IMG/VR virus record: IMGVR_UViG_3300033172_000027
DNA: 21,391 nucleotides
DNA from: a virus
Strand: one strand, 5' to 3'
This document shows, one piece after another, positions 1 through 20,986 of this stretch. The notes under the pieces were generated by a model that did not search any database, was not told the DNA's origin, and saw only the letters and a list, made by a program, of their open reading frames with translations. Each line of letters starts with the position of its first letter. Position 1 is the stretch's first letter. The position numbers and the translations under genes are program-made.

Positions 1-39
1 AGGACAATCTACAAAACCCTTTTATATAATGATTGTCCT
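1..39 (+). promoter_or_regulatory. Archaeal promoter (TTTTATATA at 20-28) bracketed by the inverted repeat AGGACAATC/GATTGTCCT
   Basis: Arms at 1-9 and 31-39 are exact reverse complements. The TATA box lies about 25 bp before ATG 48/51, consistent with a leaderless transcript. Conserved in unit B. Confidence 0.7.
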
Positions 40-50
40 TTTAGTACATG

Positions 51-464
51 ATGGCAAAAGGTGGTCCCGTCGGTGAAGATGAAGAGAAGGCGATCCTCGA
101 AGCTCTGAAGGCGGGCCGATCCGTCCGAGACGTAGCCGACGAATTCGACAGAGCGACAGGGACCATATCTAACATAGCCGCACGAAATGAACTCGATTTG
201 GGTGAACGTTCAGCAACGAAAAAGGCGGCTCTTATCAAGTCCTGTTACGCCGCCGAGGACAGGATCAAGCTGATAGGCGAGGCCCTGAACAAAGGCAGGG
301 AGCTTCTGAAGAGCTGCGATAGTCCCCGCGATTTTCAATATCTGATGACCGGCTTTGCGATCGGCATCGATAAGCGGCGGCTGGAAGAGGCGACCGACCC
401 ATCGGCCCGGGGCGGGGAGATCCGGATCCTCTTCGAGAGGATGGGCGAGGAGGTGGAGGCTTGA
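51..464 (+). CDS. HTH protein, putative terminase small subunit
   Basis: N-terminal HTH (ILEALKAGRSVRDVADEFDRATGTISNIA). Its stop overlaps the terL start (TTGA). ATG 51 aligns with the unit B start at 14116; ATG 48 is an alternative. The TerS role is inferred from position. Confidence 0.65.
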   Translation: MAKGGPVGEDEEKAILEALKAGRSVRDVADEFDRATGTISNIAARNELDLGERSATKKAALIKSCYAAEDRIKLIGEALNKGRELLKSCDSPRDFQYLMTGFAIGIDKRRLEEATDPSARGGEIRILFERMGEEVEA

Positions 465-1693
465 GCTTCCAAGTCCCTGTGGGGAAGCAGAGGGACTTCT
501 GTCTCGGCTCCGATGCGAGGGTCAATATCGCCCACGGGGCGGTGAGGTCTGCGAAGACCGTCGGGGCCAACGTCCGATGGCTCCGGGCCGTCCTGGAGGC
601 GCCGGCGGGTGTCAACCTCCTCATGACGGGGAAGACCCTCACCTCCCTGGAGCGCAACGTCCTTCTCCCCATCTCCAGGCTTGTGGGGGCGGGCGACTTC
701 GAATACCGGCGGTCCCTGAAGGTCGCCACCATCTACGGGCGGCATATCCTTTGCGAAGGGGCCAACGACGAGAGCGCCTATACCAAGATCGCCGGCCTCA
801 CCCTCGGCGGCGCCTACGTTGACGAGGGGAGCCTCTCCCCGGAGAGCTTCCTTAACATGCTGGTGAGCCGCCTCTCCGAGCCCGGAGCTCAACTCTTCCT
901 CACCACGAACCCCGGCCCCCCCGCTCACTACCTCAAGAAGCGATGGATCGATCGAGAGGAGGAGCTGGACCTCAAAAGCTGGCATTTCACGCTCGAAGAT
1001 AACCCCTGGCTGGATCCCGTTTACGTCGCCGAGCTCAAGCGCCAGTTTGGCCCCCCGTCCAGCCTCTTCTATCAGAGGTACGTTCTCGGTCTGTGGGTGA
1101 TGGCCGAGGGGGCGGTCTATCGCAACTTCGACCGGGACCTTCACGTCGTCCCCTCCCTCCCCGACGAGAGGATGGAGGAGATGAGGGTCGCCGTCGATCC
1201 TGGGGCAACCCATCCGAGCGCGTTTTTGAAAGCTGTTAGGATCGGCGAGACGTGGTACGTCTTCGGCGAGTATCGGAAGGCCGACAAGTCCCCGGCTGAG
1301 GTATCGAAGGACCTTAAGAGGTTCCTCGACGGGATGCACCCCTCATCGATCGACGTCGACCCGGCGGCGAAGGCTCACCGGCTCCAGTTCATCGGCGACG
1401 GTATCGAGGGGGTCCAGCAGGCCGATAACGACGTCCTCAACGGCATCCAGCGGGTCATCTCGGCGTTCAATCAAGGATGGCTCAAGCTTGTGGGGCCGGC
1501 TACTCCCATGCTCCAGGAGGAGCTGGAGGGTTACAGATGGGATCCGAAGGCGACGGAACGGGGCGAGGACGCCCCCATTAAAGAGGGCGACGACCTCGTC
1601 GACGCCCTTCGATACCTGGTTAATAGGATCAGCAAGAGCCGCCGGCTTACTCCTCCGACGGCGAGACGAGAGAGGGGGAGGATCAGATCATGA
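461..1693 (+). CDS. terL: Terminase large subunit (PBSX-like)
   Basis: Walker A-like HGAVRSAKT, Walker B AYVDEG, coupling motif TTNPG, HFTLEDNP, nuclease acidic motifs AVDPG and DDLVDALRY. TTG start preceded by GGAGGT. Confidence 0.92.
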   Translation: MSFQVPVGKQRDFCLGSDARVNIAHGAVRSAKTVGANVRWLRAVLEAPAGVNLLMTGKTLTSLERNVLLPISRLVGAGDFEYRRSLKVATIYGRHILCEGANDESAYTKIAGLTLGGAYVDEGSLSPESFLNMLVSRLSEPGAQLFLTTNPGPPAHYLKKRWIDREEELDLKSWHFTLEDNPWLDPVYVAELKRQFGPPSSLFYQRYVLGLWVMAEGAVYRNFDRDLHVVPSLPDERMEEMRVAVDPGATHPSAFLKAVRIGETWYVFGEYRKADKSPAEVSKDLKRFLDGMHPSSIDVDPAAKAHRLQFIGDGIEGVQQADNDVLNGIQRVISAFNQGWLKLVGPATPMLQEELEGYRWDPKATERGEDAPIKEGDDLVDALRYLVNRISKSRRLTPPTARRERGRIRS

Positions 1694-3066
1694 CTTCGAC
1701 CGTACATACTGACTTAAGCTTCCTCGGACCGGGGCGAAAATGGCCCCCAACAGAGGATAAAGCGCGGCTGGACCGATACGCAATTAACCGCCTCCTCCTG
1801 GAAGGAGACCACGATCTCATCTTCACCAGCCTGAATGAGGACGACGCCCCCCGGATCGTCAAGATGAGGGTCAACTGGTTCAAGCGGATCATGACCCTCT
1901 TCTCCGACCTGGCTGTGGGGAACCCTCCGGCGATCAGAGCCGACGAGCCGCAACAGCCCAACCTCGACCGGGTCGTTGAGGGTAACTCCCTCTCCCTCAC
2001 GGCCTACGACCTCTTCTCCGACCTCATAGCCTTCGGCGACGGGGTCCTCAAGGTCCGATGGAACGGGGGCCGGGGTGTCATCTCCAGGATCGACCCTCGG
2101 CTCTGGTTCCCGGTCGTCGACCCCGACGACGTCGGGACCTTTGCGGCTCACGTCCTGGCCTGGGAGATCGTCGAGGGCGACGAGAAGTACGTCAAGGCCG
2201 AGATCCACCTCGCCGGAAGGATAGAGCACCGTCTCCTCAAGCTCAACGCCGCCGGCGACGAGATCCTCGGAGCCGTCCCTCTCGCCACGATCGAGAGGTA
2301 CTCGACCCTGAAGGACTCGGAGGAGACGGGCGTCCCCGGCTTCCTGGTGGTCCCCTTTTCCAACCTGAAGAGCGGCGACGGCGTCTTCGGGCTGGACGAC
2401 TTCAAGGGCATAACTGACCTTGTGGAGGAGGTCGAGCGGCGGCTGATCAAGATCTCCGGGACCCTGGACGTCTTCTCTGACCCCTGGATGGCGGGACCCC
2501 CGGGACTGAGGATCAAGGACCCTGTGACGGGCGAGGTAGTTTGGGCTTCCGACGAGAAGTACATCGCCCTTAACGAAGGCGAGTCCCCGCCCTCAATCCT
2601 CACGTGGGATGCTCAGATGGGGGCGACGTTCTCCCACATCGAGGAGGTCCTCGGCCAACTGTACGTGATGGCCGAGCTGTCGCCGGCGGCCTTCGGCGAG
2701 ACGAAGTCCGGGCTCGCCGAGTCGGGATCCGCCCTCAAGAGGCTGATGCTCCCCACCCTGGCGAAGGTCAACCGGCTCCGGCTCCGGATCAAACCGGGGC
2801 TTCTCACCGTCCTGGTGACGACCGCCGAGCTCGAAAAGGCTTCCAGGATGCCGGGGGCGACGTCCCTCGACAACCTCACTATCGAATGGAGGGAGAACCT
2901 CCCCACCGACCCCCTGGAGGCGGCGAAGGTGGAGGCGACAAGACGGGGAGCGAGAGCCACCTCGACGTGGGGGTCCCTATCCAGGCTCGACCCCGACGCC
3001 ACCGAGAAGGACCTCGAAGCCGAGGAGGCGAGGATCAAGGAGGAGGAGGCCGTCCTCCCTCCCTAA
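1690..3066 (+). CDS. Portal protein (SPP1 gp6-like)
   Basis: 458 aa immediately after terL with ATGA overlap. The segment AESGSALKRLMLPTLAKVNRLR and the C-terminal W..NLP.D pattern are typical of SPP1-type portals. Confidence 0.85.
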   Translation: MTSTVHTDLSFLGPGRKWPPTEDKARLDRYAINRLLLEGDHDLIFTSLNEDDAPRIVKMRVNWFKRIMTLFSDLAVGNPPAIRADEPQQPNLDRVVEGNSLSLTAYDLFSDLIAFGDGVLKVRWNGGRGVISRIDPRLWFPVVDPDDVGTFAAHVLAWEIVEGDEKYVKAEIHLAGRIEHRLLKLNAAGDEILGAVPLATIERYSTLKDSEETGVPGFLVVPFSNLKSGDGVFGLDDFKGITDLVEEVERRLIKISGTLDVFSDPWMAGPPGLRIKDPVTGEVVWASDEKYIALNEGESPPSILTWDAQMGATFSHIEEVLGQLYVMAELSPAAFGETKSGLAESGSALKRLMLPTLAKVNRLRLRIKPGLLTVLVTTAELEKASRMPGATSLDNLTIEWRENLPTDPLEAAKVEATRRGARATSTWGSLSRLDPDATEKDLEAEEARIKEEEAVLPP

Positions 3067-3077
3067 TTTATCACAAA

Positions 3078-3096
3078 AAGGACAAACCTTTAAATA
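3078..3096 (+). promoter_or_regulatory. Putative promoter for scaffold/capsid genes (TTTAAATA at 3089-3096, preceded by AAGGACAA)
   Basis: AT-rich 90-bp intergenic gap within a GC-rich operon, containing a canonical archaeal TATA box. Repeated at 17157-17164. Confidence 0.6.
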
Positions 3097-3156
3097 CTAT
3101 ACCAGTGAATATAGACAATAAGGCAAACGAAGGCCGCAAACTTCGGAGATTCGAAA

Positions 3157-3591
3157 ATGTCCAGTGATGATGAAAAGAAGTTCACGCAGGCAGACGTGGA
3201 CCGGATAGTCCAGGAACGGATAGCCCGTGAGAAGGCGAAATACGCCGACTATGACGAGATCAAGGCCGAAAATGAGGACCTGAAGGCCAAGATCGCCGAG
3301 AACGAATCCGCCACCCTGGAAAATCTAAAGCAGAAGGTCGTCACCGACCTCAAGCTCCCCCCCTCCCTGGCGGGACGACTCCAGGGCGCGACGGAGGAGG
3401 AGCTGAAGGCAGACGGCGCCAAGCTGCTGAAAGAACTCGGTCCCCGCGAGCCTGTGGGTGGTGGGGGGCAACCTCCGGGCGACGTGAAGAAACCGTTAAC
3501 CCGTGAGGCTGTCAAGAAGATGACCCCCGACCAAATCATCGCAAACATGGACCAGATCAAGGCCCAAATGAAAGAGGGCTCACTGAGGTAA
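3157..3591 (+). CDS. Capsid scaffolding protein (DUF4355/gp46-like)
   Basis: N-terminal KKFTQADVDRIVQERIAREKAK motif, charged coiled-coil composition, located directly before the capsid gene. Confidence 0.8.
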   Translation: MSSDDEKKFTQADVDRIVQERIAREKAKYADYDEIKAENEDLKAKIAENESATLENLKQKVVTDLKLPPSLAGRLQGATEEELKADGAKLLKELGPREPVGGGGQPPGDVKKPLTREAVKKMTPDQIIANMDQIKAQMKEGSLR

Positions 3592-3596
3592 GATAG

Positions 3597-4451
3597 ATGG
3601 CAATAACGAATTTCATAGGCGAGGTTTGGGCGGCCCAAATCCTCCAGGCTCTCCAGAAGGCCCTGGTTTACGGACAGGCCGGAGTGATCAACCGGGACTA
3701 CGAAGGCGACATCAAGGGGAAGGGCGACACGGTGAGGATCACCGCCCACGGCCCGATAACGATCGACAACTACGACAAGAGCACCGGCCTCTCCGATCCT
3801 GAGGAGCTGGACGACGCCTCCACCACCCTGGAGATCACTCAGGCCAAATCCTTCAACTTCCGGATCGAGGACGTCGACAAGGCGCAGATGAACGTGAAGC
3901 TGATGGAGAGCGCCACCAGAGACGCGGCCTATCGGCTCGCCGACGTGGCTGATCAGTATATCGTGGGGATCATGGCGGCCCAGGCCGGCTCTGCTGTGGG
4001 GGCCGACGGATCTGACAAGATCTTCGACGGGTCGACTGACCTAGTATCCGAGGAGCTGCTTGAGATCAAGCAGAAGCTCGATGAGGCCGATGTCCCCTTT
4101 GAGGGCCGATGGGTCATCGTCCCGCCCTGGGTGACGAAGTGGCTTCTCCAGGAGGACGCCGTGAATCTCCCCATGTGGTCTGCTGTGGAGGGAGTGATGA
4201 AGAACGGTCAGATAGGCCGTCTTTATGGCTTCGACATCCTCCAGTCCAACAACGTACCCAACACCGCCGGAGATCACTACAAGGTTGTGGCTGGGGTGGC
4301 GAGGGCGACGACCTTCGCCGACTCTGTGAACGAGACCGAGGCTTACAGGCCTGACAAGTTCTTCGCCGACGCCCTCCGGGGTCTCCACTGTTACGGCGCG
4401 AAGGTTATCGATCCTGAATGCCTGTGCGTTCTGACCTGTGCTCCGAGCTGA
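3597..4451 (+). CDS. Major capsid protein (HK97 fold, P22-coat-like family)
   Basis: Motifs NFIGEVWAAQIL, NRDYEGDI.GKGDTVRI, G.IGRLYGFDILQSNN and FADALRGLHCYGAKVI; GAGGT ribosome-binding site upstream. Confidence 0.88.
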   Translation: MAITNFIGEVWAAQILQALQKALVYGQAGVINRDYEGDIKGKGDTVRITAHGPITIDNYDKSTGLSDPEELDDASTTLEITQAKSFNFRIEDVDKAQMNVKLMESATRDAAYRLADVADQYIVGIMAAQAGSAVGADGSDKIFDGSTDLVSEELLEIKQKLDEADVPFEGRWVIVPPWVTKWLLQEDAVNLPMWSAVEGVMKNGQIGRLYGFDILQSNNVPNTAGDHYKVVAGVARATTFADSVNETEAYRPDKFFADALRGLHCYGAKVIDPECLCVLTCAPS

Positions 4452-4462
4452 GGTGATGAAGA

Positions 4463-4843
4463 ATGGTAAGATCTGAAATAACCGTAAACGGGCTTTCGGG
4501 GGCGTGGGCTGACAGAGAGACGCCCGACGCGATCGATAAGGGAAACCATCACGTCATCGCCGAGGGTGCGAACTTCAAGAGGCTTCTGATCCTCGTCCAC
4601 ATCTCGGCGGGAACGGGAACCGGCGGCGCTGTGACTCTGAAGGCCGGAACCGCTCACCCTGCCTTTAGGCGAGGTCTCGGCGACCTTGTGAGAGGCGACG
4701 ACGTAGTCGCCAACGATGAGTTCTGCATCGGACCCATTGAGACGGCTCGATACCTCCAGGCAGACGGGACGATCCACATCGACATAACCGACACGACCGG
4801 GACCAACATCGCCGGGACGATCGAGGCCTACGCTCTGCCTTGA
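4463..4843 (+). CDS. Small virion protein, probable capsid decoration/cement protein
   Basis: 126 aa, beta-rich (VTLKAG...GDL...IGPIETARYLQADGTIHIDI), directly after the capsid gene with a GAGGTG ribosome-binding site, conserved in unit B. Function inferred from position. Confidence 0.55.
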   Translation: MVRSEITVNGLSGAWADRETPDAIDKGNHHVIAEGANFKRLLILVHISAGTGTGGAVTLKAGTAHPAFRRGLGDLVRGDDVVANDEFCIGPIETARYLQADGTIHIDITDTTGTNIAGTIEAYALP

Positions 4844-4871
4844 AACATCACGATGGTCTGCGTTAGCCATA

Positions 4872-4924
4872 GGGGGAAGCCTCAAAGGGCTTGTCACCTA
4901 GGCCCGTTCCCCTGGGCTTCCCCC
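4872..4924 (+). other. Intergenic stem-loop (GGGGGAAGCC ... GGCTTCCCCC) with a nested GGGC/GCCC stem
   Basis: 10-bp perfect arms at 4872-4881 and 4915-4924. The arms are identical at 18943-18952 and 18986-18995 while the loop differs. Confidence 0.55.
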
Positions 4925-4947
4925 ACAAACCTCGAAGGTACGATTCT

Positions 4948-5427
4948 ATGACTGAATATGTCACTTCTGAAGAGATGGACGCCTACGCGGCCAACAGACC
5001 CGACTCATCGGCCTGGACCGGCGCCACCGAGGCGGATCAAGAGGACGCCCTGAAATACTCCTCCTCCCTTGTGGACTCTCTTCTATTCGTGGGCCGGAAG
5101 TACGACACCGATCAGGCCCTCCAATGGCCGAGGCTGATTAAGGTCCGGGGCGGCTGGACGGTCGAGAGGGACGCCGAGGGGGACGTCTGCATCCCTCAAG
5201 CGATCAAAGATGCAGTCTGCGAGGAGATCCTGTCGAGGCTATCCCCCACAGGCGCCGAGAGAAGAGCCCTCCAGGCCTCCGGGGTGAAGAGCTTCCGGAT
5301 CTCTGACCTCTCCGAGACCTTCGACCCTGCGATGGAAGGCGGCGGGATCAAGGGAACGCCCCTCATATCATGGACGGCCTACCGGCTGCTGGAGCCCTAT
5401 CTGGCGAAGGGAGCGCGGGCGAGATGA
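4948..5427 (+). CDS. Head-completion protein 1 (head-tail connector/adaptor; so-called DnaT-like phage family)
   Basis: YVTSEEMDAY...W...ALKYSSSLVD...FVGRK....QALQWPR...IPQAIKDAVCE pattern. Start set at ATG 4948 by alignment with unit B ORF 19020 (the track start at 4891 is upstream). Confidence 0.7.
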   Translation: MTEYVTSEEMDAYAANRPDSSAWTGATEADQEDALKYSSSLVDSLLFVGRKYDTDQALQWPRLIKVRGGWTVERDAEGDVCIPQAIKDAVCEEILSRLSPTGAERRALQASGVKSFRISDLSETFDPAMEGGGIKGTPLISWTAYRLLEPYLAKGARAR

Positions 5428-6050
5428 GCCTGATCTCCGGCTACCTCAACCAGACGGCCAGCCATTACGTCACAGCCGAATTTTATAATGGGGCTCCTCT
5501 CGACGAGATCCCGCTCAACGATATAACCATCGGCGAGGACTTCAGGATCCGGGCCGAACGTTCGGGGAGCGCCGGCGATCCGAGACATGTCTATCTGGTC
5601 GGGACCCTTGACGGTGAGCCCGTAACTGAAACTCTCACTTTTACATCTGGTCTATACGGCCCCGAATTGATCGTAACGGGCGATGAGCTATTCGACGACC
5701 TCACCGAAGTTACAACCGATATGGGAGGGGACTACGGCATAACAATCAGTATTCGGGCCGTTGATGCCGCCGGCGATGAGATCCCACCCACATGGCAAGA
5801 ATTCGCCTGCAGGTGGGAAGACAAAAGATCGACCTACCTTAAGGTGAGTGACGACGAAGCCAGCGAAGTTATCGCCGTATCTGATGCCAAAGTGATATGT
5901 GAGGCTCAAATAGAGGCCGAGGCCCTGGTTAGGCCCGTTGTTGGCGGCGTTCCGGGGATAGTCTATGAGGTTAAGGTGGTGAAGTCCACGCCCGGCTTGT
6001 CGGGGTCCGAGGAGTTCCGTGTTCTTCTTCTCGGGGGCGTGGGCGAGTGA
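5424..6050 (+). CDS. Head-completion protein 2 (SPP1 gp16-like stopper/adaptor core with a ~115-aa inserted domain)
   Basis: ATGA overlap with the previous gene; ATG 5424 matches the unit B start at 19496. The short N-terminal strand YLNQTA and the C-terminal CRWEDK...SDAKV...YEVK.V...GL.G.EE.R.LLL resemble head-closure proteins. The family call is from pattern and position. Confidence 0.5.
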   Translation: MSLISGYLNQTASHYVTAEFYNGAPLDEIPLNDITIGEDFRIRAERSGSAGDPRHVYLVGTLDGEPVTETLTFTSGLYGPELIVTGDELFDDLTEVTTDMGGDYGITISIRAVDAAGDEIPPTWQEFACRWEDKRSTYLKVSDDEASEVIAVSDAKVICEAQIEAEALVRPVVGGVPGIVYEVKVVKSTPGLSGSEEFRVLLLGGVGE

Positions 6051-6823
6051 CCCGAACCCCGACCCAACGAATAGGCGACAAGTGGGCGAGGACGATCGCC
6101 GAGGCCTTCCTGGCGTGGCAGAGGGAGGTAGAGATCGACGGCCGAAAGAACATCCCGGCGACGGCCTTCGACCCCTCCCCTTTCATCGAGGCCGCATTTT
6201 ACGAGAGCGGTGATGCTCAGCTCGAAGAGATCGGCAAGCTTGTGGGGATAGGCGTCAAATTCGATCTACGAAACCCTGAGACAGCGGCCTGGATCATGAA
6301 ATATGGAGCGGCTGAGGTTAAGTACATCGACGAGACGGCGAAGGCCACCATCAGAGATATCGTCCTCCGGGGCCAGACTGAGGGCCTAACCCCCACAGCT
6401 CAGGCGAAGTTGATCAAAGACCATATCGGACTCCTCCCCCGCCAGCTCCGAGCCCTGGAGACCTTCGAGGAGGGGCTTGTGGGGATGAATGAGGCCGCGA
6501 AAGCGAAGGCGGTCGAGAAGTACCGCAATAGACTTCTGAGACAGAGAGCGATGACCATATCGCTTACGGAAAGCCACAGGGCGGCCAACGAAGGATATCG
6601 AGCGGCCAACAGGGACGCGGTGAAGAGGGGCATCCTCGACCCCGACGAATGGGAGAGAGCCTGGCTCGGAACCCACGATGGCCGGATGTGCTCCATCTGC
6701 GAGGGGCTTGTGGATGCGAGGGCGGATCTCCCCGACGGTCAGTTTGACAGAGGGGGAGGGGGCGGGCCAATTAAGCACCCGAAATGCCGTTGCTGCGAGA
6801 TCCTGGTCCGGAAGGTCGCATAA
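6047..6823 (+). CDS. MuF/SPP1 gp7-like minor head morphogenesis protein
   Basis: RAMTISLTESHRAANEG, W.....DGRMCSICEGL and terminal HPKCRCC motifs. GTG start overlaps the upstream TGA. Confidence 0.82.
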   Translation: MTRTPTQRIGDKWARTIAEAFLAWQREVEIDGRKNIPATAFDPSPFIEAAFYESGDAQLEEIGKLVGIGVKFDLRNPETAAWIMKYGAAEVKYIDETAKATIRDIVLRGQTEGLTPTAQAKLIKDHIGLLPRQLRALETFEEGLVGMNEAAKAKAVEKYRNRLLRQRAMTISLTESHRAANEGYRAANRDAVKRGILDPDEWERAWLGTHDGRMCSICEGLVDARADLPDGQFDRGGGGGPIKHPKCRCCEILVRKVA

Positions 6824-6832
6824 CTGGTCATC

Positions 6833-7078
6833 ATGGCAAAGCGGAAGACCGCCAAGAAGCGGGACTATAAGAAGGAATATAGGGATTTTCACGGTAAGCC
6901 CAAGCAGATCAAACTCCGGAACCAGCGCAACGCAGCGCGGCGGAAGATGGGGCTCAAGGTCGGAGATACTCGAGAAGTGGATCACAAAGTCCCTCTCTCA
7001 AAAGGGGGCTCCAACGGGAAGAGGAATCTCAGGATAGTTTCTCGCCGAACGAATAGGAAGAAAGGCGCGAAGCGATAA
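6833..7078 (+). CDS. Small basic HNH (HNN-type) endonuclease
   Basis: EVDHKVPLSKGGSNGKRNLRIVSRRTNRKKG beta-beta-alpha-metal motif. Absent from unit B. Confidence 0.85.
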   Translation: MAKRKTAKKRDYKKEYRDFHGKPKQIKLRNQRNAARRKMGLKVGDTREVDHKVPLSKGGSNGKRNLRIVSRRTNRKKGAKR

Positions 7079-7168
7079 CACCGCAACAATTCTATTCTCA
7101 CCATTTTATAAGCACCATTTCGACCTGTAAAGCCCGGATGGCGTGCAAGAAATCAGCATCCTCCGAGC

Positions 7169-7587
7169 GTCTTCGGTAAGACGGCGAGTTCGTCTTTGGT
7201 AAGGTCTTGTCTTTGGTAAGGATTTGTCTTTGGTAAGAAGCTATTTATACGATCCTTACCAAAGACAAATACAATGAAGTCGATTAAGGCTCCGGAGGGT
7301 GGAGTTTACCGCCAGGAATTTTATAAGTGCAACAAAGAGCGGTGTAAGAAATGCCGGGACGGGCCGGGACATGGACCCTATTGGGCGCGGTTCTGGTGGG
7401 AGGACGGAAGAACGCGAAAGAAGTACATCGGCAAAAACCTACCTCTTACCAAAGACACCCCGGAGGAGGAGCCCGTCCTTACCAAAGACAAGACCTTACC
7501 AAAGACTCTTACCGAAGACACGCCCCCACCCGAACCCCTACCAAAGACACGAAAGCGACTTACCAAAGACAAATCCTTACCAAAGAC
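7169..7587. repeat. Array of 12 copies of the 12-bp motif CTTAC-CA-AAGAC (consensus CTTACNNAAGAC)
   Basis: Reverse orientation at 7169, 7192, 7209, 7226; forward at 7255, 7445, 7478, 7495, 7508, 7537 (1 mismatch), 7559, 7576. A 17-bp spacing recurs. Confidence 0.95.
7226..7266 (+). promoter_or_regulatory. TATA box (TATTTATA at 7242-7249) between an inverted pair of the 12-bp motif
   Basis: GTCTTTGGTAAG at 7226-7237 and CTTACCAAAGAC at 7255-7266 flank the TATA box. ATG at 7274 is at leaderless-transcript spacing. Confidence 0.7.
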
Positions 7588-7840
7588 GAGCACCCCCACA
7601 GGCGATGAGGTAAAGAGAGCCCTGGAGGCGATCAGAGGCTTTCACGCGCGTGGGATAGAGCCAACGGCGGCGGAGGTGGCGGAGGCCGTGGGGATGGAGT
7701 CCAGGCCCCTGGGGCGGTCGATGGCGGCGGCGGGGATCCAAGCGGTCAACTGTCACCGAGGCGGGAAGAAGGCGCGGCGCTACGTCTTCGAGCTGAGGGA
7801 GAGGATTGAGGAGATGCTAAAGGGTATAGCAGTTGGGTGA
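7274..7840 (+). CDS. DUF6788-like Cys/His domain + repeat-encoded linker + C-terminal winged-HTH protein
   Basis: N-terminal C.KERCKKC....GHGPYW...W...G.TRKKYIGK; central LTKD/LPKT repeats; C-terminal PTAAEVAEAVGMESRPLGRSM HTH-like segment. The DUF6788 name is from memory of that motif. Confidence 0.7.
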   Translation: MKSIKAPEGGVYRQEFYKCNKERCKKCRDGPGHGPYWARFWWEDGRTRKKYIGKNLPLTKDTPEEEPVLTKDKTLPKTLTEDTPPPEPLPKTRKRLTKDKSLPKTSTPTGDEVKRALEAIRGFHARGIEPTAAEVAEAVGMESRPLGRSMAAAGIQAVNCHRGGKKARRYVFELRERIEEMLKGIAVG

Positions 7841-7860
7841 CACTACCACGTGGGCGGCGA

Positions 7861-8469
7861 TCACTTAGCTCCACCAGAAAATACCAAACGGCCCGACTTA
7901 TCTTGACGCAACGACCTATCTATTAAGTCTTGATCAATTTCATAGCGCTCATCGACGGCGGAAAGAAGTTCGTCATGTGTATTGGGCTCGCGTGGACGTT
8001 TTGCCCTATAATAGTATAACTGAACTACTACCCCCGCCTCCTTAGCCGCCTGAACTGCGGGTACAAAATCACTATCGCCCGTGATTATTACAGCCTTTTC
8101 AATCATCCCACGCCAGCTCATCCGAACAAGGTCCACCGCAAACAAAACATCGACTCGTTTTTGAACAAGCTCTCCACCGACCCACCCCAATTTTCCGAGT
8201 CTCGATTCAAATCTAGGGAGACGCTCCACAACATTCATAAATTTTTGTTTGTTTGCGTATCTCCGTTTTTCGTCTTCGGTGGGCGGATCGCTCTGAAAAG
8301 GCATACAATCATAATAATAGGTTCTTAATCTATAGTCCGATCCATTACACAAATTATCACAAAATATCTCAAAGTCGATTTTTGGGCGCCCGAACGGGCC
8401 ATCTAAAACCTTCTCGAAAAAACCACCGTCGATAAAAACCGCTACCTTCCCCAAAAAATTCCCTTCCAT
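7861..8469 (-). CDS. NYN-domain (LabA/DUF88, PIN-like) putative RNase
   Basis: Conserved acidic motifs VFIDGG, TYYYD, QKRVDV..AVD and TGDSDFVPAV..AK..GV.V. Confidence 0.88.
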   Translation of the reverse strand: MEGNFLGKVAVFIDGGFFEKVLDGPFGRPKIDFEIFCDNLCNGSDYRLRTYYYDCMPFQSDPPTEDEKRRYANKQKFMNVVERLPRFESRLGKLGWVGGELVQKRVDVLFAVDLVRMSWRGMIEKAVIITGDSDFVPAVQAAKEAGVVVQLYYYRAKRPREPNTHDELLSAVDERYEIDQDLIDRSLRQDKSGRLVFSGGAK

Positions 8470-8485
8470 ATCTGTGAATATTTCA

Positions 8486-8509
8486 CTACCGTCCCCGAAG
8501 GGACGGTAG
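8486..8509. repeat. Perfect 10-bp hairpin CTACCGTCCC-CGAA-GGGACGGTAG
   Basis: Arms at 8486-8495 and 8500-8509 are exact reverse complements, located in the divergent intergenic region. Confidence 0.85.
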
Positions 8510-8635
8510 GGGCTATAGTGTAGTTACTCACTACTATAGGCAGTGATATAATAATCTGGCGGATGGGGCAGGATTTTTGGAGCATCGAAACACTTTTCGC
8601 CTATTGGGGCAGTCTCTTCCCCAGGAGATCAGGAT

Positions 8636-9226
8636 ATGGGAATTAAGGAAAAGTTACCGTTGCTTAATAGCGAAAAGAAAGCGACAAGAATCGCGGGCTA
8701 TGTGGTGTATGCGTTTGTTGTTTTGATTGTCTTGGGAGCCATTCTTCCGAGCCCGGATACTGGAGGAGAGACGGGGACGACCACGACAGCCGCAACTGCG
8801 GCCACCACAGACGAGAGCGCGGCCACTGGAACGGCTGACAAGGAGAAAGAGATCGATCCAAACCTTGAATGGATGGCCACAACTTACGTATCAATGGGTT
8901 ATATCGTGGAGGACATGCAGGCAGTGAGTACCGCTGCAGAAGATATGGACATTGACGAAGTAGCGTCCAGATGCTCCGACTTAAAGGCCCATGTTCAAGT
9001 AGCAAAGCGCCTTAATAATGAATACGAAGTTAGCTCAGAATTGGCGACTGCTAAATATGAATGGGGCGGGGCTTTGGACGACTACGAAAGGGCGGCTGAA
9101 GAGGGTTATAACGGTGCGAAAAACCTAGACCCGGAAGCCCTTGAAAAAGCATCACTGTATATGACGATGGGAAATAAGCATATCGAAAAGGCAACGGCTG
9201 AGATTGACCGATACAGTAAGGCTTAG
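8636..9226 (+). CDS. Single-pass membrane protein with a Thr/Ala-rich linker and helical extracellular domain
   Basis: Hydrophobic segment IAGYVVYAFVVLIVLGAILP, linker TGTTTTAATAATTDESAATG, acidic helical C-terminal region; AGGA upstream of the ATG. Confidence 0.75.
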   Translation: MGIKEKLPLLNSEKKATRIAGYVVYAFVVLIVLGAILPSPDTGGETGTTTTAATAATTDESAATGTADKEKEIDPNLEWMATTYVSMGYIVEDMQAVSTAAEDMDIDEVASRCSDLKAHVQVAKRLNNEYEVSSELATAKYEWGGALDDYERAAEEGYNGAKNLDPEALEKASLYMTMGNKHIEKATAEIDRYSKA

Positions 9227-9417
9227 ATCCCCACCTTTTCATCTCTTTTTATTCGATCCTATTATTAAATTCTCTAGAAGCGTTTTGAGGGGCTCTTTTT
9301 TCTGGAGGTGCGGGGGAACCATGGCTGATGGGGTTCATTTTGAGGCGATAATACTAAAATTTACCGAAACATTTTTTAATGAAATTTGACAGTAACTTTA
9401 TCCAAGAGGTTGACAAG

Positions 9418-9942
9418 ATGTGGTTTAAACTGATTTTGGCGTTATTGATGCTGGTATCCTCAGCCCTGGCAGACGAGGTAGATGACCAAATAGCTGCCCT
9501 GAAAGATCCAGCCACAGGATGGGAAGAGAGGACCGAAGCCCTTAATGGATTAATCCAAAGTAATGATTCAAGAGCTGTTGAACCCTTGATTGCGTGTCTA
9601 AATGACGAAAATTCAGCAATACGTTTTTCCGCGGCCGCGGGTCTTGGATCATTTGCTGATCCTAGAGCTGTTGATCCGTTGATCGATTCTCTGAAGAACG
9701 ACAAAGATGTCTTAACTCGCAAGGGGGCTGCGTACTCTTTAGGTAAAATTGGCGATCCTAAAGCCCTTTCCGCGTTGAAATATGCGGCCGCTAATGATGA
9801 ATCCCCACAAGTTCGGGGTAGTGCAACTGAAGCTATAGCTGTAATCAATGTCGATAATCCCGAAGAAAGCCCATTAACCTTATCGATAGGAGCTATATCC
9901 CTTATAACAGCTGCTCTCTTAACCAGGTCCAGGAGGAGATAA
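9418..9942 (+). CDS. Exported HEAT-repeat (PBS-lyase-like) protein with C-terminal membrane anchor/sorting-like tail
   Basis: Signal peptide MWFKLILALLMLVSSALA (GAGGT at 9406-9410 favours ATG 9418 over 9379). Repeats RAVEPLIACLND, RAVDPLIDSLKND, ALSALKYAAAND. Tail ESPL-hydrophobic-RSRRR. Confidence 0.8.
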   Translation: MWFKLILALLMLVSSALADEVDDQIAALKDPATGWEERTEALNGLIQSNDSRAVEPLIACLNDENSAIRFSAAAGLGSFADPRAVDPLIDSLKNDKDVLTRKGAAYSLGKIGDPKALSALKYAAANDESPQVRGSATEAIAVINVDNPEESPLTLSIGAISLITAALLTRSRRR

Positions 9943-10271
9943 GAATTAGACCGGAATTACAATACTTTAAACTGTAATTGCCTTCAAACTCCACCACCTT
10001 TTTTATAACAACCGAACCCCGGCTTGTTTACTCGATCGCAAGCCTCCCCACAGAGACTATAGGAATGTTGGCGAGCCGTCGCGTATCATCATGGGGTGAT
10101 GGGTCGAAAAGATCCTTATCCGAGAGGGCCGGCCCGGAGCAGTGGCGACCGATAGCGGTTTTTGAGGCGAGAATTTCGATTAGACTTATCGATCAGTTAT
10201 ACCAAGTAGGCAGATCACATCAGCCCCCCAGGGAGGGAGTACAATTGAGATTATTTTATACGACATACCCG

Positions 10272-10320
10272 TTCTTATGTAACCGATTGACCCTAAATGA
10301 TAGGGCGGGTTACATAAGAA
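10272..10320. repeat. Perfect 13-bp inverted repeat TTCTTATGTAACC/GGTTACATAAGAA with a nested CCCTA/TAGGG hairpin
   Basis: Arms at 10272-10284 and 10308-10320; inner stem at 10291-10295 and 10301-10305. Confidence 0.9.
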
Positions 10321-10410
10321 AATACGGGGGGGGCCAGAGCCCAGTAGGAGGAGTTACTCGAACCTCGCGCGATGGAGATTAATGTAAGGCGAATGATCTT
10401 CACAAGTCTT

Positions 10411-10477
10411 AAGAAACATTGAAGAATCTTCAAAGAAACGTCGAAGAATCGTCACATGGCGAGCTAACCTATAAATA
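10411..10477 (+). promoter_or_regulatory. Two 18-bp direct repeats (AAGAAACRTYGAAGAATC, 22-bp period) upstream of TATA box TATAAATA
   Basis: Repeats at 10411-10428 and 10433-10450; TATA at 10470-10477, ahead of the RHH gene. Confidence 0.6.
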
Positions 10478-10542
10478 GCACCACGCCATTATAATTGGTG
10501 TCGAAATAGACCTGGGGGTGCCACCCCAGGAGGAACCGAAAT

Positions 10543-10728
10543 ATGACAGTCAATCGACCAGGGGATCAGATCCTCACAGTCTACATGCCAAAAGACGAGC
10601 GGGCTATTTTTGCATCCGCCGCCAAAAATTTAGGCGTTCCTGTGTCATCTTTTGGAAGGCTAATTTTGAGAATCGGATACGATCAAGTCCAGCGAGAGCC
10701 TTCGCTCCTAATCGAGGCGATGAAATGA
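10543..10728 (+). CDS. Ribbon-helix-helix (CopG/Arc-like) regulator
   Basis: 61 aa with strand ILTVYMP followed by two helices (KDERAIFASAAKNLG and VSSFGRLILRIG), the typical RHH layout; lies upstream of the replication gene. Confidence 0.7.
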   Translation: MTVNRPGDQILTVYMPKDERAIFASAAKNLGVPVSSFGRLILRIGYDQVQREPSLLIEAMK

Positions 10729-10971
10729 TAAGTAAAAGTTGGGTAGTGGCGGGTGCCATCCGCCACCGTGTCAGACCAGCCGCTTTCCTCCTTTTCGTTG
10801 CACGGCCAACAGGAACCGAAGAAGCCAGCCGAGCAGGTGGTCTATATGAGTTGTTGTAGTTTCCCCGATATAAATGTGTCTATTTTGCCATTTACAGCCA
10901 CCTCATCCAGATCAAGGCAAACGGGGACCGGGTTATCCTTCGCAAACCCTACCTCATCTCCACGAGATCAC

Positions 10972-10993
10972 TTTCACCATGCTCATGGTGAAA
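10972..10993. promoter_or_regulatory. 22-bp palindrome TTTCACCATG-CT-CATGGTGAAA, putative operator of the replication gene
   Basis: 10-2-10 perfect inverted repeat ending 31 bp before ATG 11025. Confidence 0.55.
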
Positions 10994-11024
10994 AAATAAA
11001 AGATATCCGGTCAGAGGGGTGGAG

Positions 11025-14000
11025 ATGAACGCCCCCACAGTCGAAGAACTGACCCGGTTCATCAAGTTCCTCGGCCATGAAAAGTTCTGCATCAAGAGCG
11101 TGAGGACGGGCGAGAAGGGCGCACAAGAGGCGCATTTCGACCTCATCAACGCCAACAAGGCCGTCGATTACATCAAGCTGAGGGACGGGAAGAGGCAACT
11201 GTGGGTGAACGTCCAGAAGTTGAAGAGGGACTCCGAGAAATACCATACCCATCTGGACGTCGAGGCCTACACCAACATTTTTTTGGACATCGACGCCAAA
11301 AAGCCTGATGATAGAAAGGACCACGCCGCGACTGAATTCGAGCGGGGCTTTGCTGTGGCGCAGCTCCCCACAGTCCAGAGATGGTTATCGGAGAAGGGCT
11401 TCAAGAGCGGGCTCGGCTTCAAGTCCGGGAACGGGGCGGGGCTGCTGCTGCCTATCCCCCCCACCGAACCGACGCCGGAGTTCATAGCGAAGGTGGCGGC
11501 CTTCCTGAAGGTGGTCAGAAAGGAGGCCGACGTCGACGTCGACACGGCGACCTTCGATCCTCCAAGAGTCTGTGGGGTCCTAGGGACCTGGAACTCGAAG
11601 TTTGAAGACGAGGAAGAGGGGCGGAAGAACCACCACCGGGAAGCTATCGGCGAGATCCCCACAAGAGATGAGGATGCGAAGCTCCTGAGGTTCATCGAGG
11701 AGCTGACACCAGACCCCGACGCCCTGAAGACCTGGACGGAGAAGTTCAACCAGCCCCCCACAGCCGGGGGGGACGAGGACGCCGAGCCGGAACCGCAGGA
11801 GGACGCCGGGGAGATCGACGTCGACTTTGTGAGGGAGAAGCTCGACACCCTTTTAGAGGCTGATCCGACCCTCCAGAGCCTTCTGGACTGGACCGACGAG
11901 GCGAAGGAACGGCACGACGGGGACCGATCAGACGCCGAGTTTGGGCTTGTGGGGAAGCTCACCGGCGCCGGGTTTACCGATCCAGAAATCAACTGGATCA
12001 TGACCTACATCTCGCGGATCGGGAAGTGGTCCGAGGAGGGAGAACATTATCAGAGGCTTACCCTCCGGAAGATCCGGGCGAAGGATGCCGAGGAGACCGC
12101 CGAGGACGAAGGAGAGGGCGCCGGAGCCACCGACCCGGAACGGCTGAGGTTCAAGGATCTTATGAAGACCGTCACCGACGAGGAGACCGGGAAGAAGAGA
12201 CGGCAAAGAAGCGTAACGGCGGCGGCAACCTCGATCATAAAGAAGTATGATATCATCTCGACCCCCGACGGTCAGATATGGGTCTACGACGCCCAGGAGG
12301 GGATCTGGAAGCCGAACGGTAGGACCCTCGTCGCCGCGGAACTCGATCACGCCGGGAACGACGCAACCAACATCACGTTCACCCGCGAGGTTACGCAAAA
12401 GGTCTTCCTCCGAACCCTGGACGAGACCGACGGCGATATCTTCAATCCGGACCCCGACCTATTCCCTGTCGAGAACGGGATCATAGACCTCAGGAAGGGG
12501 CTCGACGGCTTCATGCCGCACGATCCGAAGTATAAGCGCACCTGGAAGTCTCCGATCGTCTTCGATCCGAAGGCGAAATGCCCTGAGATCGAGAAGTACC
12601 TCGCCTCCAGCCTGGACGAGGCCGGGAGAGAGACTCTCATCGACGTCATGGCGGCGAAGCTGTCCGGTTACGTCTTCAACTACTTCTCACCATGGGTGGG
12701 GACGGGACGGAACGGTAAGCTGATGGCGGCGGAGATAATCAGAGGGATATGGGGAAGCCCTCTCATAACCGAAGTGGAGGTCTATAAGCTCGCGGAGAGG
12801 AGGTTTGATCAGATCGCCCTGAGGGGGAAGAGATGGATCTTCAACTCAGAGACACCCCGAACCGCCACAAAGACCCTATTCGATTGGGCAAAGAAGATCT
12901 CCGGCGGGGACATGATAACCGCCGATCAGAAGAACAAGGAGCACGTCCAGTTTAGGACCGACGCCTATTTCGTTTTTGATTGCAACTCCGCCCCAAGGAT
13001 CGGCGAGTCTACGAGAGCGATCGAGGAGCGGATCGCCCCCATTTTTTGGCCCTATACATTCGTAGACAACCCCGTCGCCCCTGAGGAGAGGAAGGCAGAT
13101 CGCCACCTCCTGGGAAAGATCACCAAGCCGGAGGAGCTTTCGGGATTCCTCAACGTCCTCCTCCTGGAGGCCCCGAGGCTGATCGAGACAAGGATCATCC
13201 GGAGAACTGGGACCGGGAAGGAGATCGTCGAGGCCTACAACCTGAAAGCCGACCATCTCGCCATGTTCTGGGACCGAGTAGTAAGCTATTCTCCTGGGAA
13301 CGTGACACCGTCGACAGTGATGTACAACGGATACAAGCGGCTATGCGAAGCGATCAAAGTCTCACCCGAAACTCTCGTCGGCTTCAATCGATACGGGCAG
13401 AGAATTGGCTTCCGGAAGGGCTCGCCCCGCGTCTCAACCGACGACGGAAGGCAGGTACAGGTGAAGGGGTGGTACGACTGCGAGATCGACGAGAGCGAGT
13501 TAGAGGACCTCATCGGCCCCAAAGACGACGAGAAAACCGATCCGCCCCAAGACGACGATAAGGGAGACGACGAGAAGAAACAGGAACGGGTTACGGATGT
13601 TACCGGCATGTTACCGGTTTTGGAAAACGAAAACCAGCAACATGTTACCGATGTTACCGACATTACCACTTTAGATAACAGTCTAAAGGATATAGAGGAT
13701 ATAGGTAATAGTCCTGTAAATTGTATAAAGGAAGTTGTGGACGAAACCGGTAAAAGCGGTAAAATTGGTAACAAGATAGCGATTCCGACCGGTAACATAG
13801 CGGTAACATGCCCCCCAAAAAACGGTAACATCGCCGGCAAAACTTCACCCCGTCCTGTGGGCGAGAAGGCGAAGGACGACGGGGTCTTCGGGAAGAGTCG
13901 AGCGTACTATCTCCAAGTCGGTGGAGGCCAGATCCCCACCATCCGGCAACTGATGGATGACATCCCCAGCGAGTGGACAGCGGATAAAGCGAAGATGGCT

Positions 14001-14057
14001 ATCCATCTCCTGGAGGAGAAGGGCGATTCGAGGGGGTTCAATATGCCGCCGGATTGA
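11025..14057 (+). CDS. Replication protein: AEP-like primase domain + helical PriCT-like domain + D5_N + SF3 helicase (P4-alpha/D5-like)
   Basis: IFLDID, SGNG, D..TFDPPRV...GTWNSK; DRSDAEFGLVGKL; FPVENGIIDLRKG...HDPKYKRT; Walker A-like GTGRNGK, RGKRWIFNSE, KKISGGDMITADQKNK, FVFDCN. ATG 11025 is preferred over GTG 11019. Confidence 0.85.
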   Translation: MNAPTVEELTRFIKFLGHEKFCIKSVRTGEKGAQEAHFDLINANKAVDYIKLRDGKRQLWVNVQKLKRDSEKYHTHLDVEAYTNIFLDIDAKKPDDRKDHAATEFERGFAVAQLPTVQRWLSEKGFKSGLGFKSGNGAGLLLPIPPTEPTPEFIAKVAAFLKVVRKEADVDVDTATFDPPRVCGVLGTWNSKFEDEEEGRKNHHREAIGEIPTRDEDAKLLRFIEELTPDPDALKTWTEKFNQPPTAGGDEDAEPEPQEDAGEIDVDFVREKLDTLLEADPTLQSLLDWTDEAKERHDGDRSDAEFGLVGKLTGAGFTDPEINWIMTYISRIGKWSEEGEHYQRLTLRKIRAKDAEETAEDEGEGAGATDPERLRFKDLMKTVTDEETGKKRRQRSVTAAATSIIKKYDIISTPDGQIWVYDAQEGIWKPNGRTLVAAELDHAGNDATNITFTREVTQKVFLRTLDETDGDIFNPDPDLFPVENGIIDLRKGLDGFMPHDPKYKRTWKSPIVFDPKAKCPEIEKYLASSLDEAGRETLIDVMAAKLSGYVFNYFSPWVGTGRNGKLMAAEIIRGIWGSPLITEVEVYKLAERRFDQIALRGKRWIFNSETPRTATKTLFDWAKKISGGDMITADQKNKEHVQFRTDAYFVFDCNSAPRIGESTRAIEERIAPIFWPYTFVDNPVAPEERKADRHLLGKITKPEELSGFLNVLLLEAPRLIETRIIRRTGTGKEIVEAYNLKADHLAMFWDRVVSYSPGNVTPSTVMYNGYKRLCEAIKVSPETLVGFNRYGQRIGFRKGSPRVSTDDGRQVQVKGWYDCEIDESELEDLIGPKDDEKTDPPQDDDKGDDEKKQERVTDVTGMLPVLENENQQHVTDVTDITTLDNSLKDIEDIGNSPVNCIKEVVDETGKSGKIGNKIAIPTGNIAVTCPPKNGNIAGKTSPRPVGEKAKDDGVFGKSRAYYLQVGGGQIPTIRQLMDDIPSEWTADKAKMAIHLLEEKGDSRGFNMPPD
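13589..13843. other. Putative replication origin inside the rep gene: converging iterons around an AT-rich core
   Basis: ATGTTACCG at 13597, 13608, 13642, 13651; its reverse complement CGGTAACAT at 13790, 13801, 13823; degenerate copies at 13748, 13757, 13766; AT-rich centre at about 13661-13747. Confidence 0.7.
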
Positions 14058-14112
14058 GTACAAAGAGGACAATCTACAAAACCCTTTTATATAATGATTG
14101 TCCTTATTGTAC
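14058..14112 (+). promoter_or_regulatory. Unit B terS promoter inside a 17-bp imperfect inverted repeat
   Basis: GTACAAAGAGGACAATC (14058-14074) and GATTGTCCTTATTGTAC (14096-14112) match at 15/17 as reverse complements. The TATA box lies in the 21-bp spacer, and the repeat begins right after the rep stop codon. Confidence 0.75.
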
Positions 14113-14115
14113 ACA

Positions 14116-14532
14116 ATGGCAAAAGGCGGTCCCGTTGGTGATGAAGAGGAGAAGGCGATCCTCGAAGCTCTGAAGGCCGGCCGGGGGGTCCGGGCTGTCG
14201 CCGCCGAGTTTGATCGAGCGCCCTCTACCATCTCTTCCGTCGCCACCCGCAACGGTCTGGACGTCGCCGAACATGTTTTGATGAAAAAGCGGGACCTGAT
14301 GAGGACGTGTTACAACGCCGAGGCTCGCATCAGGCTTGTGGGGGAGCTGCTGGATAAGGCGCGGTCCATGCTGAAGACCTGCGACAGCTCAAGAGACCTT
14401 CAGTATCTCGCAACCTCGATAGCGATCGGCATCGATAAGCGGCGGCTCGAAGAGGCGACCGACCCGTCGGCGAGGGGCGGGGAGATCCGGATCCTCTTCG
14501 AGACGATGGGGGGCGAGGAGGTGGAGACTTGA
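14116..14532 (+). CDS. HTH protein, putative terminase small subunit (unit B variant)
   Basis: About 70% identical to 51-464 (hand count 98/138). Start set at ATG 14116 by alignment. Confidence 0.65.
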   Translation: MAKGGPVGDEEEKAILEALKAGRGVRAVAAEFDRAPSTISSVATRNGLDVAEHVLMKKRDLMRTCYNAEARIRLVGELLDKARSMLKTCDSSRDLQYLATSIAIGIDKRRLEEATDPSARGGEIRILFETMGGEEVET

Positions 14533-17134: not shown

Positions 17135-17224
17135 TTTATCACAAAAAGGACAAACCTTTAAATACTATACCAGTGAATATAGACAATAAGGCAAACGAAG
17201 GCCGCAAACTTCGGAGATTCGAAA

Positions 17225-17659: not shown

Positions 17660-17664
17660 GATAG

Positions 17665-18519: not shown

Positions 18520-18530
18520 GGTGGTGAAAA

Positions 18531-18914: not shown

Positions 18915-19019
18915 AACATCACGCTGGTCAGCGTTAGCCATAGGGGGAAGCCTCAAAAGGGCTCGCACCTAGGCCCGTTCCCCTGGGCTTCCCCCACAAA
19001 CCTCGAAGGGTACGATTCT

Positions 19020-20884: not shown

Positions 20885-20986
20885 CTGGTCATCAACACCG
20901 CAACAATTCTATTCTCACCATTTTATAAGCACCGTTTCGACCTGTAAAACCTCCTCTTTGTGGGTGAAATCAGCATCCATCGGGCT

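Follow-up and report, generated by a model that had tools for sequence, protein, structure and literature searches.

P4 and the phage-inducible chromosomal islands (PICIs), including the Staphylococcus aureus pathogenicity islands (SaPIs), carry a primase-helicase, iterons flanking an AT-rich core beside the rep gene, and a small genome for a small capsid, and P4 and the SaPIs borrow the capsid proteins of their helpers and redirect capsid size alone. Satellites that encode their own capsid and steal tails, the capsid-forming PICIs (cf-PICIs), have been known from bacteria only; according to 10.1101/2025.02.11.637232 (Methods), from which the criteria and biology of cf-PICIs are taken here, tail-less capsids are released and the adaptor and connector are divergent genes that decide tail fit. 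Among archaea, only pSSVx and pSSVi had been described as satellites before satellites of spindle-shaped viruses, the haloarchaeal SRCEs, were added (10.1101/2025.02.15.638363). This article examines a stretch of viral DNA of 21,391 nt, IMG/VR virus record IMGVR_UViG_3300033172_000027 (hereafter the window), which holds two related units in tandem, unit A (1-14065) and unit B (14066-21391), or about 1.5 units. Unit A represents a lineage of 12-15 kb elements of Methanotrichaceae (Methanothrix-type methanogens) with head, packaging and replication genes of its own, for which the borrowing of tails from a co-infecting or co-resident siphovirus-like virus is judged the most likely arrangement, with moderate confidence. 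The element is probably the archaeal counterpart of the bacterial capsid-forming satellites.

A literature search returned no description of a capsid-forming archaeal element or of a tail-less one made up of a head alone, a mention in the 2023 compendium of methanogen viruses remaining possible. A 2026 survey records a Methanotrichaceae metagenome-assembled genome (MAG) with seven provirus regions, which were not analysed there.

Head and packaging module of unit A

Open reading frames (ORFs) were assigned to families with Pfam and PHROGs (Table 1), and the listed ORFs cover 94% of unit A, in agreement with an initial sequence-only reading of this DNA, which had judged nearly all coding space to be accounted for. 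The same reading had recognized a head module of the SPP1/PBSX type, an assignment upheld by the large terminase subunit (TerL), the SPP1-type portal, the scaffolding protein and the MuF-like minor head protein. The packaging set of capsid, portal, adaptor, connector, small terminase subunit (TerS) and TerL is complete, as the family matches and the model of the neck stopper described below indicate; the module had further been thought to end at two head-completion genes, and this part needed correction, as the MuF and HNH genes follow. No prohead protease family was matched in the head module by Pfam or PHROGs, and a scaffolding protein is present instead.

Two of the genes in this region call for separate comment. 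The 126-aa protein located 3' of the major capsid protein (MCP) gene, termed g126, has an AlphaFold2 (AF2) model with a pLDDT of 82 that matches generic beta-sandwiches alone (Z ≤7.7), and its family occupies the same place 3' of the MCP gene in the tailed virus BK063672.1; it is probably a capsid decoration or auxiliary protein. The HNH endonuclease has homologs in few relatives (L030 and G002:C23) and, from this distribution, looks like an optional insertion, possibly a homing one, and not like part of the packaging core. A cos module with HNH as a core feature was accordingly rejected.

The product of 5424-6050 has no sequence-family match in Pfam or PHROGs. Its AF2 model (pLDDT 87, from an alignment of 20 homologs) shows a head-closure barrel with a beta-sandwich inserted at residues ~16-116, and the best rows returned by VIA-align are mostly neck stoppers of phages and gene transfer agents (GTAs), namely those of Pam3 (8hdr_A, Z 8.8) and a GTA (6tba_3A, Z 7.5), with further stopper matches to PBSX XkdH (3f3b, Z 7.0) and the SaPI1 neck (9mu2_C, Z 6.8). 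Foldseek searches with the stopper and g126 models gave no match below E 0.001, the stopper being placed by the exhaustive aligner alone, and sequence profiles of the two proteins found no match among solved structures. Within the profile of the stopper family, plain stoppers of ~100 aa align with the C-terminal core alone, and the insert matches repeats of giant cadherin-like/Big_9 proteins. As modelled, 5424-6050 encodes a protein of head completion rather than one of a tail or nozzle. The same check of folds left g126 as a generic beta-sandwich and 8636-9226 as a membrane-anchored protein, for which an Atlas structure look-up gave weak leads and no tail fold. Across the relatives and between units A and B, the stopper is the most divergent head gene, with 53-56% identity where the MCP has 92-96%, and TerS comes next.

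Table 1. Features of units A and B in the window, with strand and supporting evidence
Feature	Positions	Strand	Evidence or remark
TerS candidate, helix-turn-helix (HTH)	48-464	+	HTH_38, phrog_5536; directly 5' of TerL
TerL, PBSX/SPP1 type	461-1693	+	Terminase_3, Terminase_6N/6C, phrog_2 2.7e-45
Portal, SPP1 gp6 type	1690-3066	+	PF05133 2.8e-13, phrog_533 1e-30
Scaffolding protein	3157-3591	+	DUF4355, phrog_233 1.2e-15
HK97-fold MCP	3597-4451	+	Phage_capsid_4, phrog_267 8.4e-59
g126, conserved 126-aa beta-sandwich protein	4463-4843	+	phrog_24894
Head-tail adaptor Ad1	4891-5427 (likely start 4948)	+	DnaT_2 1.3e-15, phrog_477 1e-15
Predicted neck stopper/head-closure protein with inserted Ig-like beta-sandwich	5424-6050	+	Structure model
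MuF/SPP1 gp7-like minor head protein	6047-6823	+	Phage_Mu_F, phrog_3517 3.6e-20
HNH endonuclease	6833-7078	+	PF01844, phrog_4590; in unit A but not B
Array of 11 copies of CTTACNNAAGAC	7169-7587	.	5' of and within DUF6788 gene
DUF6788 Zn-ribbon-like basic protein	7274-7840	+	Weak PF20586 match; CxxC pairs, 40 K+R
NYN-domain nuclease, cargo	7861-8469	-	PF01936 5e-14
Membrane-anchored cargo protein, N-terminal transmembrane segment, Thr/Ala-rich linker	8636-9226	+	Hydropathy; weak Sie-like phrog_8545
HEAT-repeat protein, cargo	9379-9942	+	HEAT_2 3.4e-32; hydrophobic signal-like N-terminus
D5/P4-type primase-helicase, 1012 aa	11019-14057	+	D5_N, DUF5906, phrog_864 3.4e-32
Converging nine-mer iterons, 4 forward and 3 reverse ATGTTACCG	13597-13831	.	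3' end of primase gene
Unit B	14066-21391	+	Second, diverged copy
Unit B TerS	14116-14532	+	
Unit B TerL	14529-15761	+	
Unit B portal	15758-17134	+	
Unit B scaffold	17225-17659	+	
Unit B MCP	17665-18519	+	
Unit B g127	18531-18914	+	
Unit B Ad1	19020-19499	+	
Unit B stopper	19496-20110	+	
Unit B MuF	20111-20884	+	
Unit B DUF6788	21049-21390	+	Truncated by window edge

Absence of a tail and completeness of the unit

No tail or lysis family was matched in Pfam or PHROGs for any ORF of the window, as the sequence-only reading had anticipated, and the unexplained ORFs of unit A total ~720 aa, which is too little for the tail of a siphovirus, myovirus or podovirus. This absence is meaningful because the same libraries detect tail genes in tailed relatives from this host family: in the provirus of the closed genome G058 they find a head-tail connector, a major tail protein and a 1089-aa tape measure, and in BK063672.1 (Caudoviricetes sp. 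vir515, host Methanosarcinales, 36.5 kb) a full tail module. The variable regions of ~20 long relatives likewise contain no tail genes and hold cargo instead, including a methyltransferase, a ClpP-like protease, a PD40 propeller, a DUF11 surface protein and a minor capsid protein 2. One relative encodes an 1166-aa protein (L042:14895-18395, minus strand) with surface-repeat domains of the DUF11, SdrD-B-like and related types and an internal repeat of 326 nt, which could be either large adhesin-like cargo or adjacent host DNA.

That the unit is complete is shown more securely by relatives than by the tandem in the window. The contig L001 (JALHIN010000038.1; 13,899 nt) has a 99-nt terminal overlap and the same gene order, L016 and L045 also wrap round, and G002:C23 (20,991 nt) repeats with a period of 11,923 nt and an exact wrap-around overlap of 9068 nt. 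The latter carries TerS, TerL, portal, scaffold, MCP, g126 and HNH, with no detectable homolog of the adaptor, stopper or primase of the window, and judging by these genes would be a smaller variant with other neck and replication modules. Sizes accordingly extend from 11.9 kb in G002:C23 through 13.5 kb (L006), 13.8 kb (L001) and 14,065 nt (unit A) to 15.4 kb (G036).

Integrated copies delimit the element directly. In the closed genome G036, an element of 15,423 nt lies between exact 107-nt direct repeats at tRNA-Ser(GCT) (joined coordinates 13937-14043 and 29360-29466 of G036:C1:1672000-1711999). The right repeat consists of 63 nt upstream and the first 44 nt of the tRNA gene, so that the attachment (att) site lies in the 5' half of that gene. 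The element contains an integrase, head genes, a D5 primase, TerS, TerL, portal, MuF and one 421-aa ORF, for which an Atlas look-up gave weak leads alone, and it is flanked by PheRS genes on one side and DUF2207 and insertion sequence (IS) genes on the other. In L006, which belongs to a MAG, a 13.5-kb element with an integrase and a 15-nt bounding repeat adjoins LeuRS, an aminotransferase and archaeal Hel308. Inspection of the flanks, which the sequence-only reading had put forward as a place where tail genes might lie, thus found host genes at both ends and no tail module beside the integrated relatives G036 and L006.

A tyrosine integrase with att sites occurs in the relatives L006, L047, L074 and G036. 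No integrase was found in the window by Pfam, PHROGs or tblastn with the L006 integrase, and the units of the window are probably episomal or cointegrated. In L047, a tRNA-His gene (267-340) lies directly beside the integrase gene (895-1848), and the tRNA gene that serves for attachment therefore differs between members of the lineage.

Two diverged units in tandem

A second copy had been placed from 14066 onwards, which is correct, but the window does not show one period twice: unit B is a diverged copy and not an exact repeat, has no counterpart of 6834-7076 (the HNH gene) and shows no nucleotide match to 5470-6032 in a self-comparison of the window. Elsewhere, nucleotide identity between the units is 94% across 1-5469 and 96% across 6033-6833. 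Within the first of these regions lies an exact block of 2852 nt (1092-3943, equal to 15160-18011), which covers the 3' part of TerL, the portal, the scaffold and the start of the MCP gene and is flanked by sequence 85-93% identical; it could reflect recent gene conversion, a crossover that formed a cointegrate, or an assembler path. An independent contig of 26.5 kb (L018/L023) likewise consists of two diverged units in tandem.

At the protein level, the portal and scaffold are identical in the two units, and amino acid identity is 96.5% for the MCP and MuF, 93% for TerL and g126, and 91% for the adaptor, so that the remaining head module is 91-100% identical once TerS and the stopper, the sole strongly diverged genes, are set aside. 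TerS has 71.5% amino acid identity with a synonymous divergence (dS) of 0.86, and the stopper has 56% with saturated dS. Every gene that differs between the units has a ratio of nonsynonymous to synonymous divergence (dN/dS) of 0.09-0.31, the MCP having 0.09, and both copies are therefore functional. The sequences of TerS and the stopper look like swapped alleles or modules instead of the outcome of gradual drift, and the exchange possibly separates the packaging specificity and the tail or neck compatibility of co-resident units. Two ORFs antisense to TerL and MCP (335-1339 and 17317-18537) were rejected as GC-rich artefacts.

Host, distribution and evolutionary position

An archaeal host had been proposed, and the evidence places the lineage in Methanotrichaceae through physical linkage in two MAGs and one closed genome. 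Four of the seven matches in the genome collection fall in two Methanotrichaceae MAGs, the genome G002 alone has four MCP matches, and 15 of 105 Methanotrichaceae species genomes contain an MCP homolog. The search for related elements in methanogen genomes and viromes, suggested by the sequence-only reading, also recovered more than 80 IMG/VR contigs from ~56 metagenome identifiers; about 80 contigs share the architecture and the cargo regions and lack tail genes. The near-identical contigs L001 and L003 (CAZMSH010000150.1) were binned in MAGs labelled Synergistetes and Rikenellaceae. A bacterial host was rejected, these labels being best read as mis-binning of small high-copy circles because relatives integrate in Methanotrichaceae chromosomes. 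At G081:C2:2703-3549, an MCP homolog is interrupted (two in-frame TGA codons, split match), and some relatives are decaying.

No phage record in GenBank has an MCP with more than 60% identity. The best matches there are the bacterial phages D6E and AP45 (49-52 kb) at 48.5-48.6% and the tailed archaeal virus vir515 at 41.7%. The MCP tree places all 14 tail-less rows in a single group of 18 rows, whose other four rows were not classified for architecture, and no tailed row lies inside it; support is 100/99 for a core of 17 rows and 88/73 for the join with G036. This group nests among tailed proviruses and vir515. Among the classifiable Methanotrichaceae relatives, those with MCP identity of at least 51% are tail-less and 12-15 kb long, and those with at most 42% (32-42% by tblastn) are tailed. 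The simplest reading of these sequence relationships is that a siphovirus-like virus of archaea would have lost its tail module and given rise to the lineage once.

Replication, regulatory and cargo genes

The sequence-only reading had described a P4/D5-type primase-helicase with an origin. The primase-helicase is found, with D5_N and DUF5906 domains, and the 3' end of its gene harbours a candidate replication origin made up of seven converging copies of ATGTTACCG (0.08 copies expected). A 12-bp motif, CTTACNNAAGAC, has 23 matches in the window against 0.06 expected, with a second array at 20987-21389 at the DUF6788 gene of unit B, and its central dinucleotide differs between the two units. 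Homologs of the DUF6788 protein occur in most relatives, and its sequence makes it a candidate regulator; no AlpA-like regulator gene was seen in the window.

Cargo had also been predicted, and is represented by a NYN nuclease, a membrane-anchored protein and a HEAT protein. Paralogs of the membrane-anchored protein (~36% identity) lie between the portal and scaffold genes in several relatives (L001:3014-3355, L014:8970-9296 and L040:6835-7176), and this family therefore moves between the cargo region and the head operon. The ORFs within 9978-11028 are doubtful, with non-ATG starts, low complexity and low G+C.

Proposed mechanism and alternative explanations

The preferred interpretation is built on the gene inventory, the absence of a tail, the completeness of the unit, its archaeal host and mobility, the purifying selection on its genes and its grouping among tailed viruses, from which particle formation, a small capsid and dependence on a helper may be deduced. 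The unit would replicate through its own D5-type primase-helicase at the iteron origin and would make a full SPP1/PBSX-type head from TerS, TerL, portal, scaffold, MCP, the beta-sandwich protein, MuF, adaptor and stopper. Its own DNA would be packaged in a small capsid, for which the size of 12-15 kb suggests T=4, and the adaptor-stopper neck would close this capsid in place of a tail. The capsid would then dock onto the tails of a siphovirus-like virus in the same hosts, as cf-PICIs do in bacteria, with TerS setting packaging specificity and the adaptor and stopper setting tail compatibility.

Several points weigh against this mechanism. No helper was identified, and profile-profile comparison revealed no similarity between the stopper and either of the two ORFs that follow the adaptor gene in the G058 provirus. 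A tape-measure search found none in the closed genome G036, which bears the element; any helper there would therefore have to come from outside. The units of the window are without an integrase, the Ig-like insert of the stopper could point to direct host binding or another tail-independent route, and the assembler could have produced the A-B tandem by running through two circles that exist side by side, in which case the array would not be real. Tape-measure-like matches to phrog_28 do occur at G002:C33 (L118; 2.5e-11) and G003:C211 (L119; 1.9e-39), co-binned with element-rich MAGs, and these may be fragments of tailed viruses of the same hosts and possible candidates in the search for a helper. 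G002:C33 was not called as a helper, its context being atypical.

One alternative holds that the capsid with its adaptor and stopper is itself the infectious virion of an autonomous tail-less virus, in which the Ig-like domains of the stopper attach to the surface of Methanothrix and no tail takes part in DNA delivery. The resemblance of the variable insert to cadherin-like/Big_9 adhesin repeats and to the turret or fibre domains of viruses speaks for it, as do the fruitless search for a helper, the lack of a tape-measure match in the element-bearing G036, and the abundance and diversity of the lineage over so many metagenomes. However, Ig-like decorations are common on phage structural proteins without a receptor-binding role, the structure matches of the insert (Z 6-7) lie within the range of common arrangements, the known role of an adaptor and stopper is to receive a tail, and no lysis or egress gene was found. 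To our knowledge, no prokaryotic virus of the HK97 lineage infects without a tail, and the explanation is considered unlikely. Its more specific form, in which autonomous HK97-lineage viruses have abandoned the tail and an Ig-displaying adaptor-stopper ring alone attaches to the sheathed Methanothrix cell and delivers the DNA, is less likely still; if true, it would constitute the first tail-less prokaryotic member of Duplodnaviria.

It is comparably improbable that the element is a capsid-encoding plasmid or integrative element whose capsids are non-infective or benefit the host, for example as a GTA-like or domesticated particle, as protection for lysis-released DNA that is taken up otherwise, or through interference with tailed viruses. 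A plasmid-like replicon with iterons, the many copies per genome (four in G002), and membrane or exported cargo together with a nuclease that could serve exclusion or defence would all suit such a device. The presence of its own TerS beside its own origin in uniform units of 12-15 kb fits the packaging of self-DNA better, and the mobility of the element (integrase/att variants and circular forms) and its patchy occurrence among species are unlike a host device that is kept vertically.

Decay is a very improbable explanation. Homologs of the head genes are found in tailed proviruses from the same family of hosts, and at least one relative (G081) has a broken MCP, as would be expected of non-functional remnants that have lost the tail module; yet the head genes are intact in both units and under the constraint reported above, the same compact architecture recurs in about 80 contigs and in one group of the MCP tree, and self-closing forms and precise att sites exist. 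The weakest proposal, that tail genes lie elsewhere in the same genome or that the contig is chimeric, can draw on the differences between the units and on the exact 2852-nt block as a possible assembler path through two strain variants, but is barely credible given that relatives which close on themselves have the same content, as do integrated copies with host genes on either side in a closed genome, and given the diverged tandem of the second contig L018/L023 and an inventory of each unit that stands even if the tandem is chimeric. Overall, the initial observation is confirmed with the corrections given above, and its interpretation as a candidate archaeal counterpart of the capsid-forming satellites is supported.

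Comparison with known systems

The nearest tailed relatives, vir515 and the G058 provirus, share much of the unit. Seven families are common to vir515 and the window unit, including the primase, and the identities with vir515 and G058 are 30% for TerL, 25% for the portal, 42-43% for the MCP, 34% for the phrog_24894 protein, 33-35% for the adaptor and 30% for the D5 primase, the scaffold being shared as well; the integrase of the G058 provirus is 53% identical to that of L006. Both differ in carrying a full siphovirus-type tail (connector, major tail protein, tape measure of 1089-1622 aa and distal tail proteins) and in being more than twice as long as the window unit. With Caudoviricetes in general, the window has in common an HK97-fold MCP, a portal and a terminase, whereas a tail of its own was not found in the window or in ~20 long relatives.

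Like P4 and the SaPIs/PICIs, the window unit combines a primase-helicase and iterons around an AT-rich core by the replication gene with a small genome, but it differs from P4 and the SaPIs in encoding a whole head. GTAs are immobile host loci that package host DNA at random and not themselves, and differ in this from the lineage, which possesses a replicon and a TerS of its own, occurs in self-closing forms and in variants with integrase and att sites, and is patchily distributed. The archaeal satellites pSSVx, pSSVi and the SRCEs are likewise replicons that arose from plasmids, carry part of a virion module and are believed to make use of a helper virus (10.1101/2025.02.15.638363); their links are to spindle-shaped viruses and in no case to head-tailed ones, and the virion genes they encode do not go beyond an MCP and/or an ATPase.

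The closest functional match is with the cf-PICIs, such as EcCIEDL933 and KpCIDSM30104, which fall in a size range of 10-18 kb that includes unit A, and which likewise have their own TerS, TerL, portal, capsid, adaptor and connector/stopper, sometimes an HNH gene, a primase-helicase-type replicon, accessory cargo, and no tail or lysis genes. A divergent neck gene is also common to both, being the adaptor/connector in cf-PICIs and the stopper here. The window element differs in being archaeal, in having an SPP1/PBSX-like head with scaffold and MuF and no protease found, in the absence of an integrase from the window unit and of any AlpA-type regulator seen, in its optional HNH gene, and in a helper dependence that is inferred. 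The match is functional and not by descent, as judged from the host, the portal type and the MCP tree, the cf-PICI proteins not having been compared directly; the origin is independent because the ancestry of the lineage lies in tailed viruses of archaea.

This lineage is compact, widespread and evolutionarily coherent. Multi-copy carriage and cargo genes suggest that it affects virus-host dynamics, and the swapped TerS and stopper offer a testable hypothesis that co-resident elements keep packaging and tail use separate. If the proposed mechanism is true, an additional route of gene transfer exists in Methanothrix, a main acetoclastic producer of methane in digesters and wetlands, and tail piracy, as practised by the cf-PICIs of bacteria, extends to a second domain of life through an independent invention from archaeal tailed viruses.

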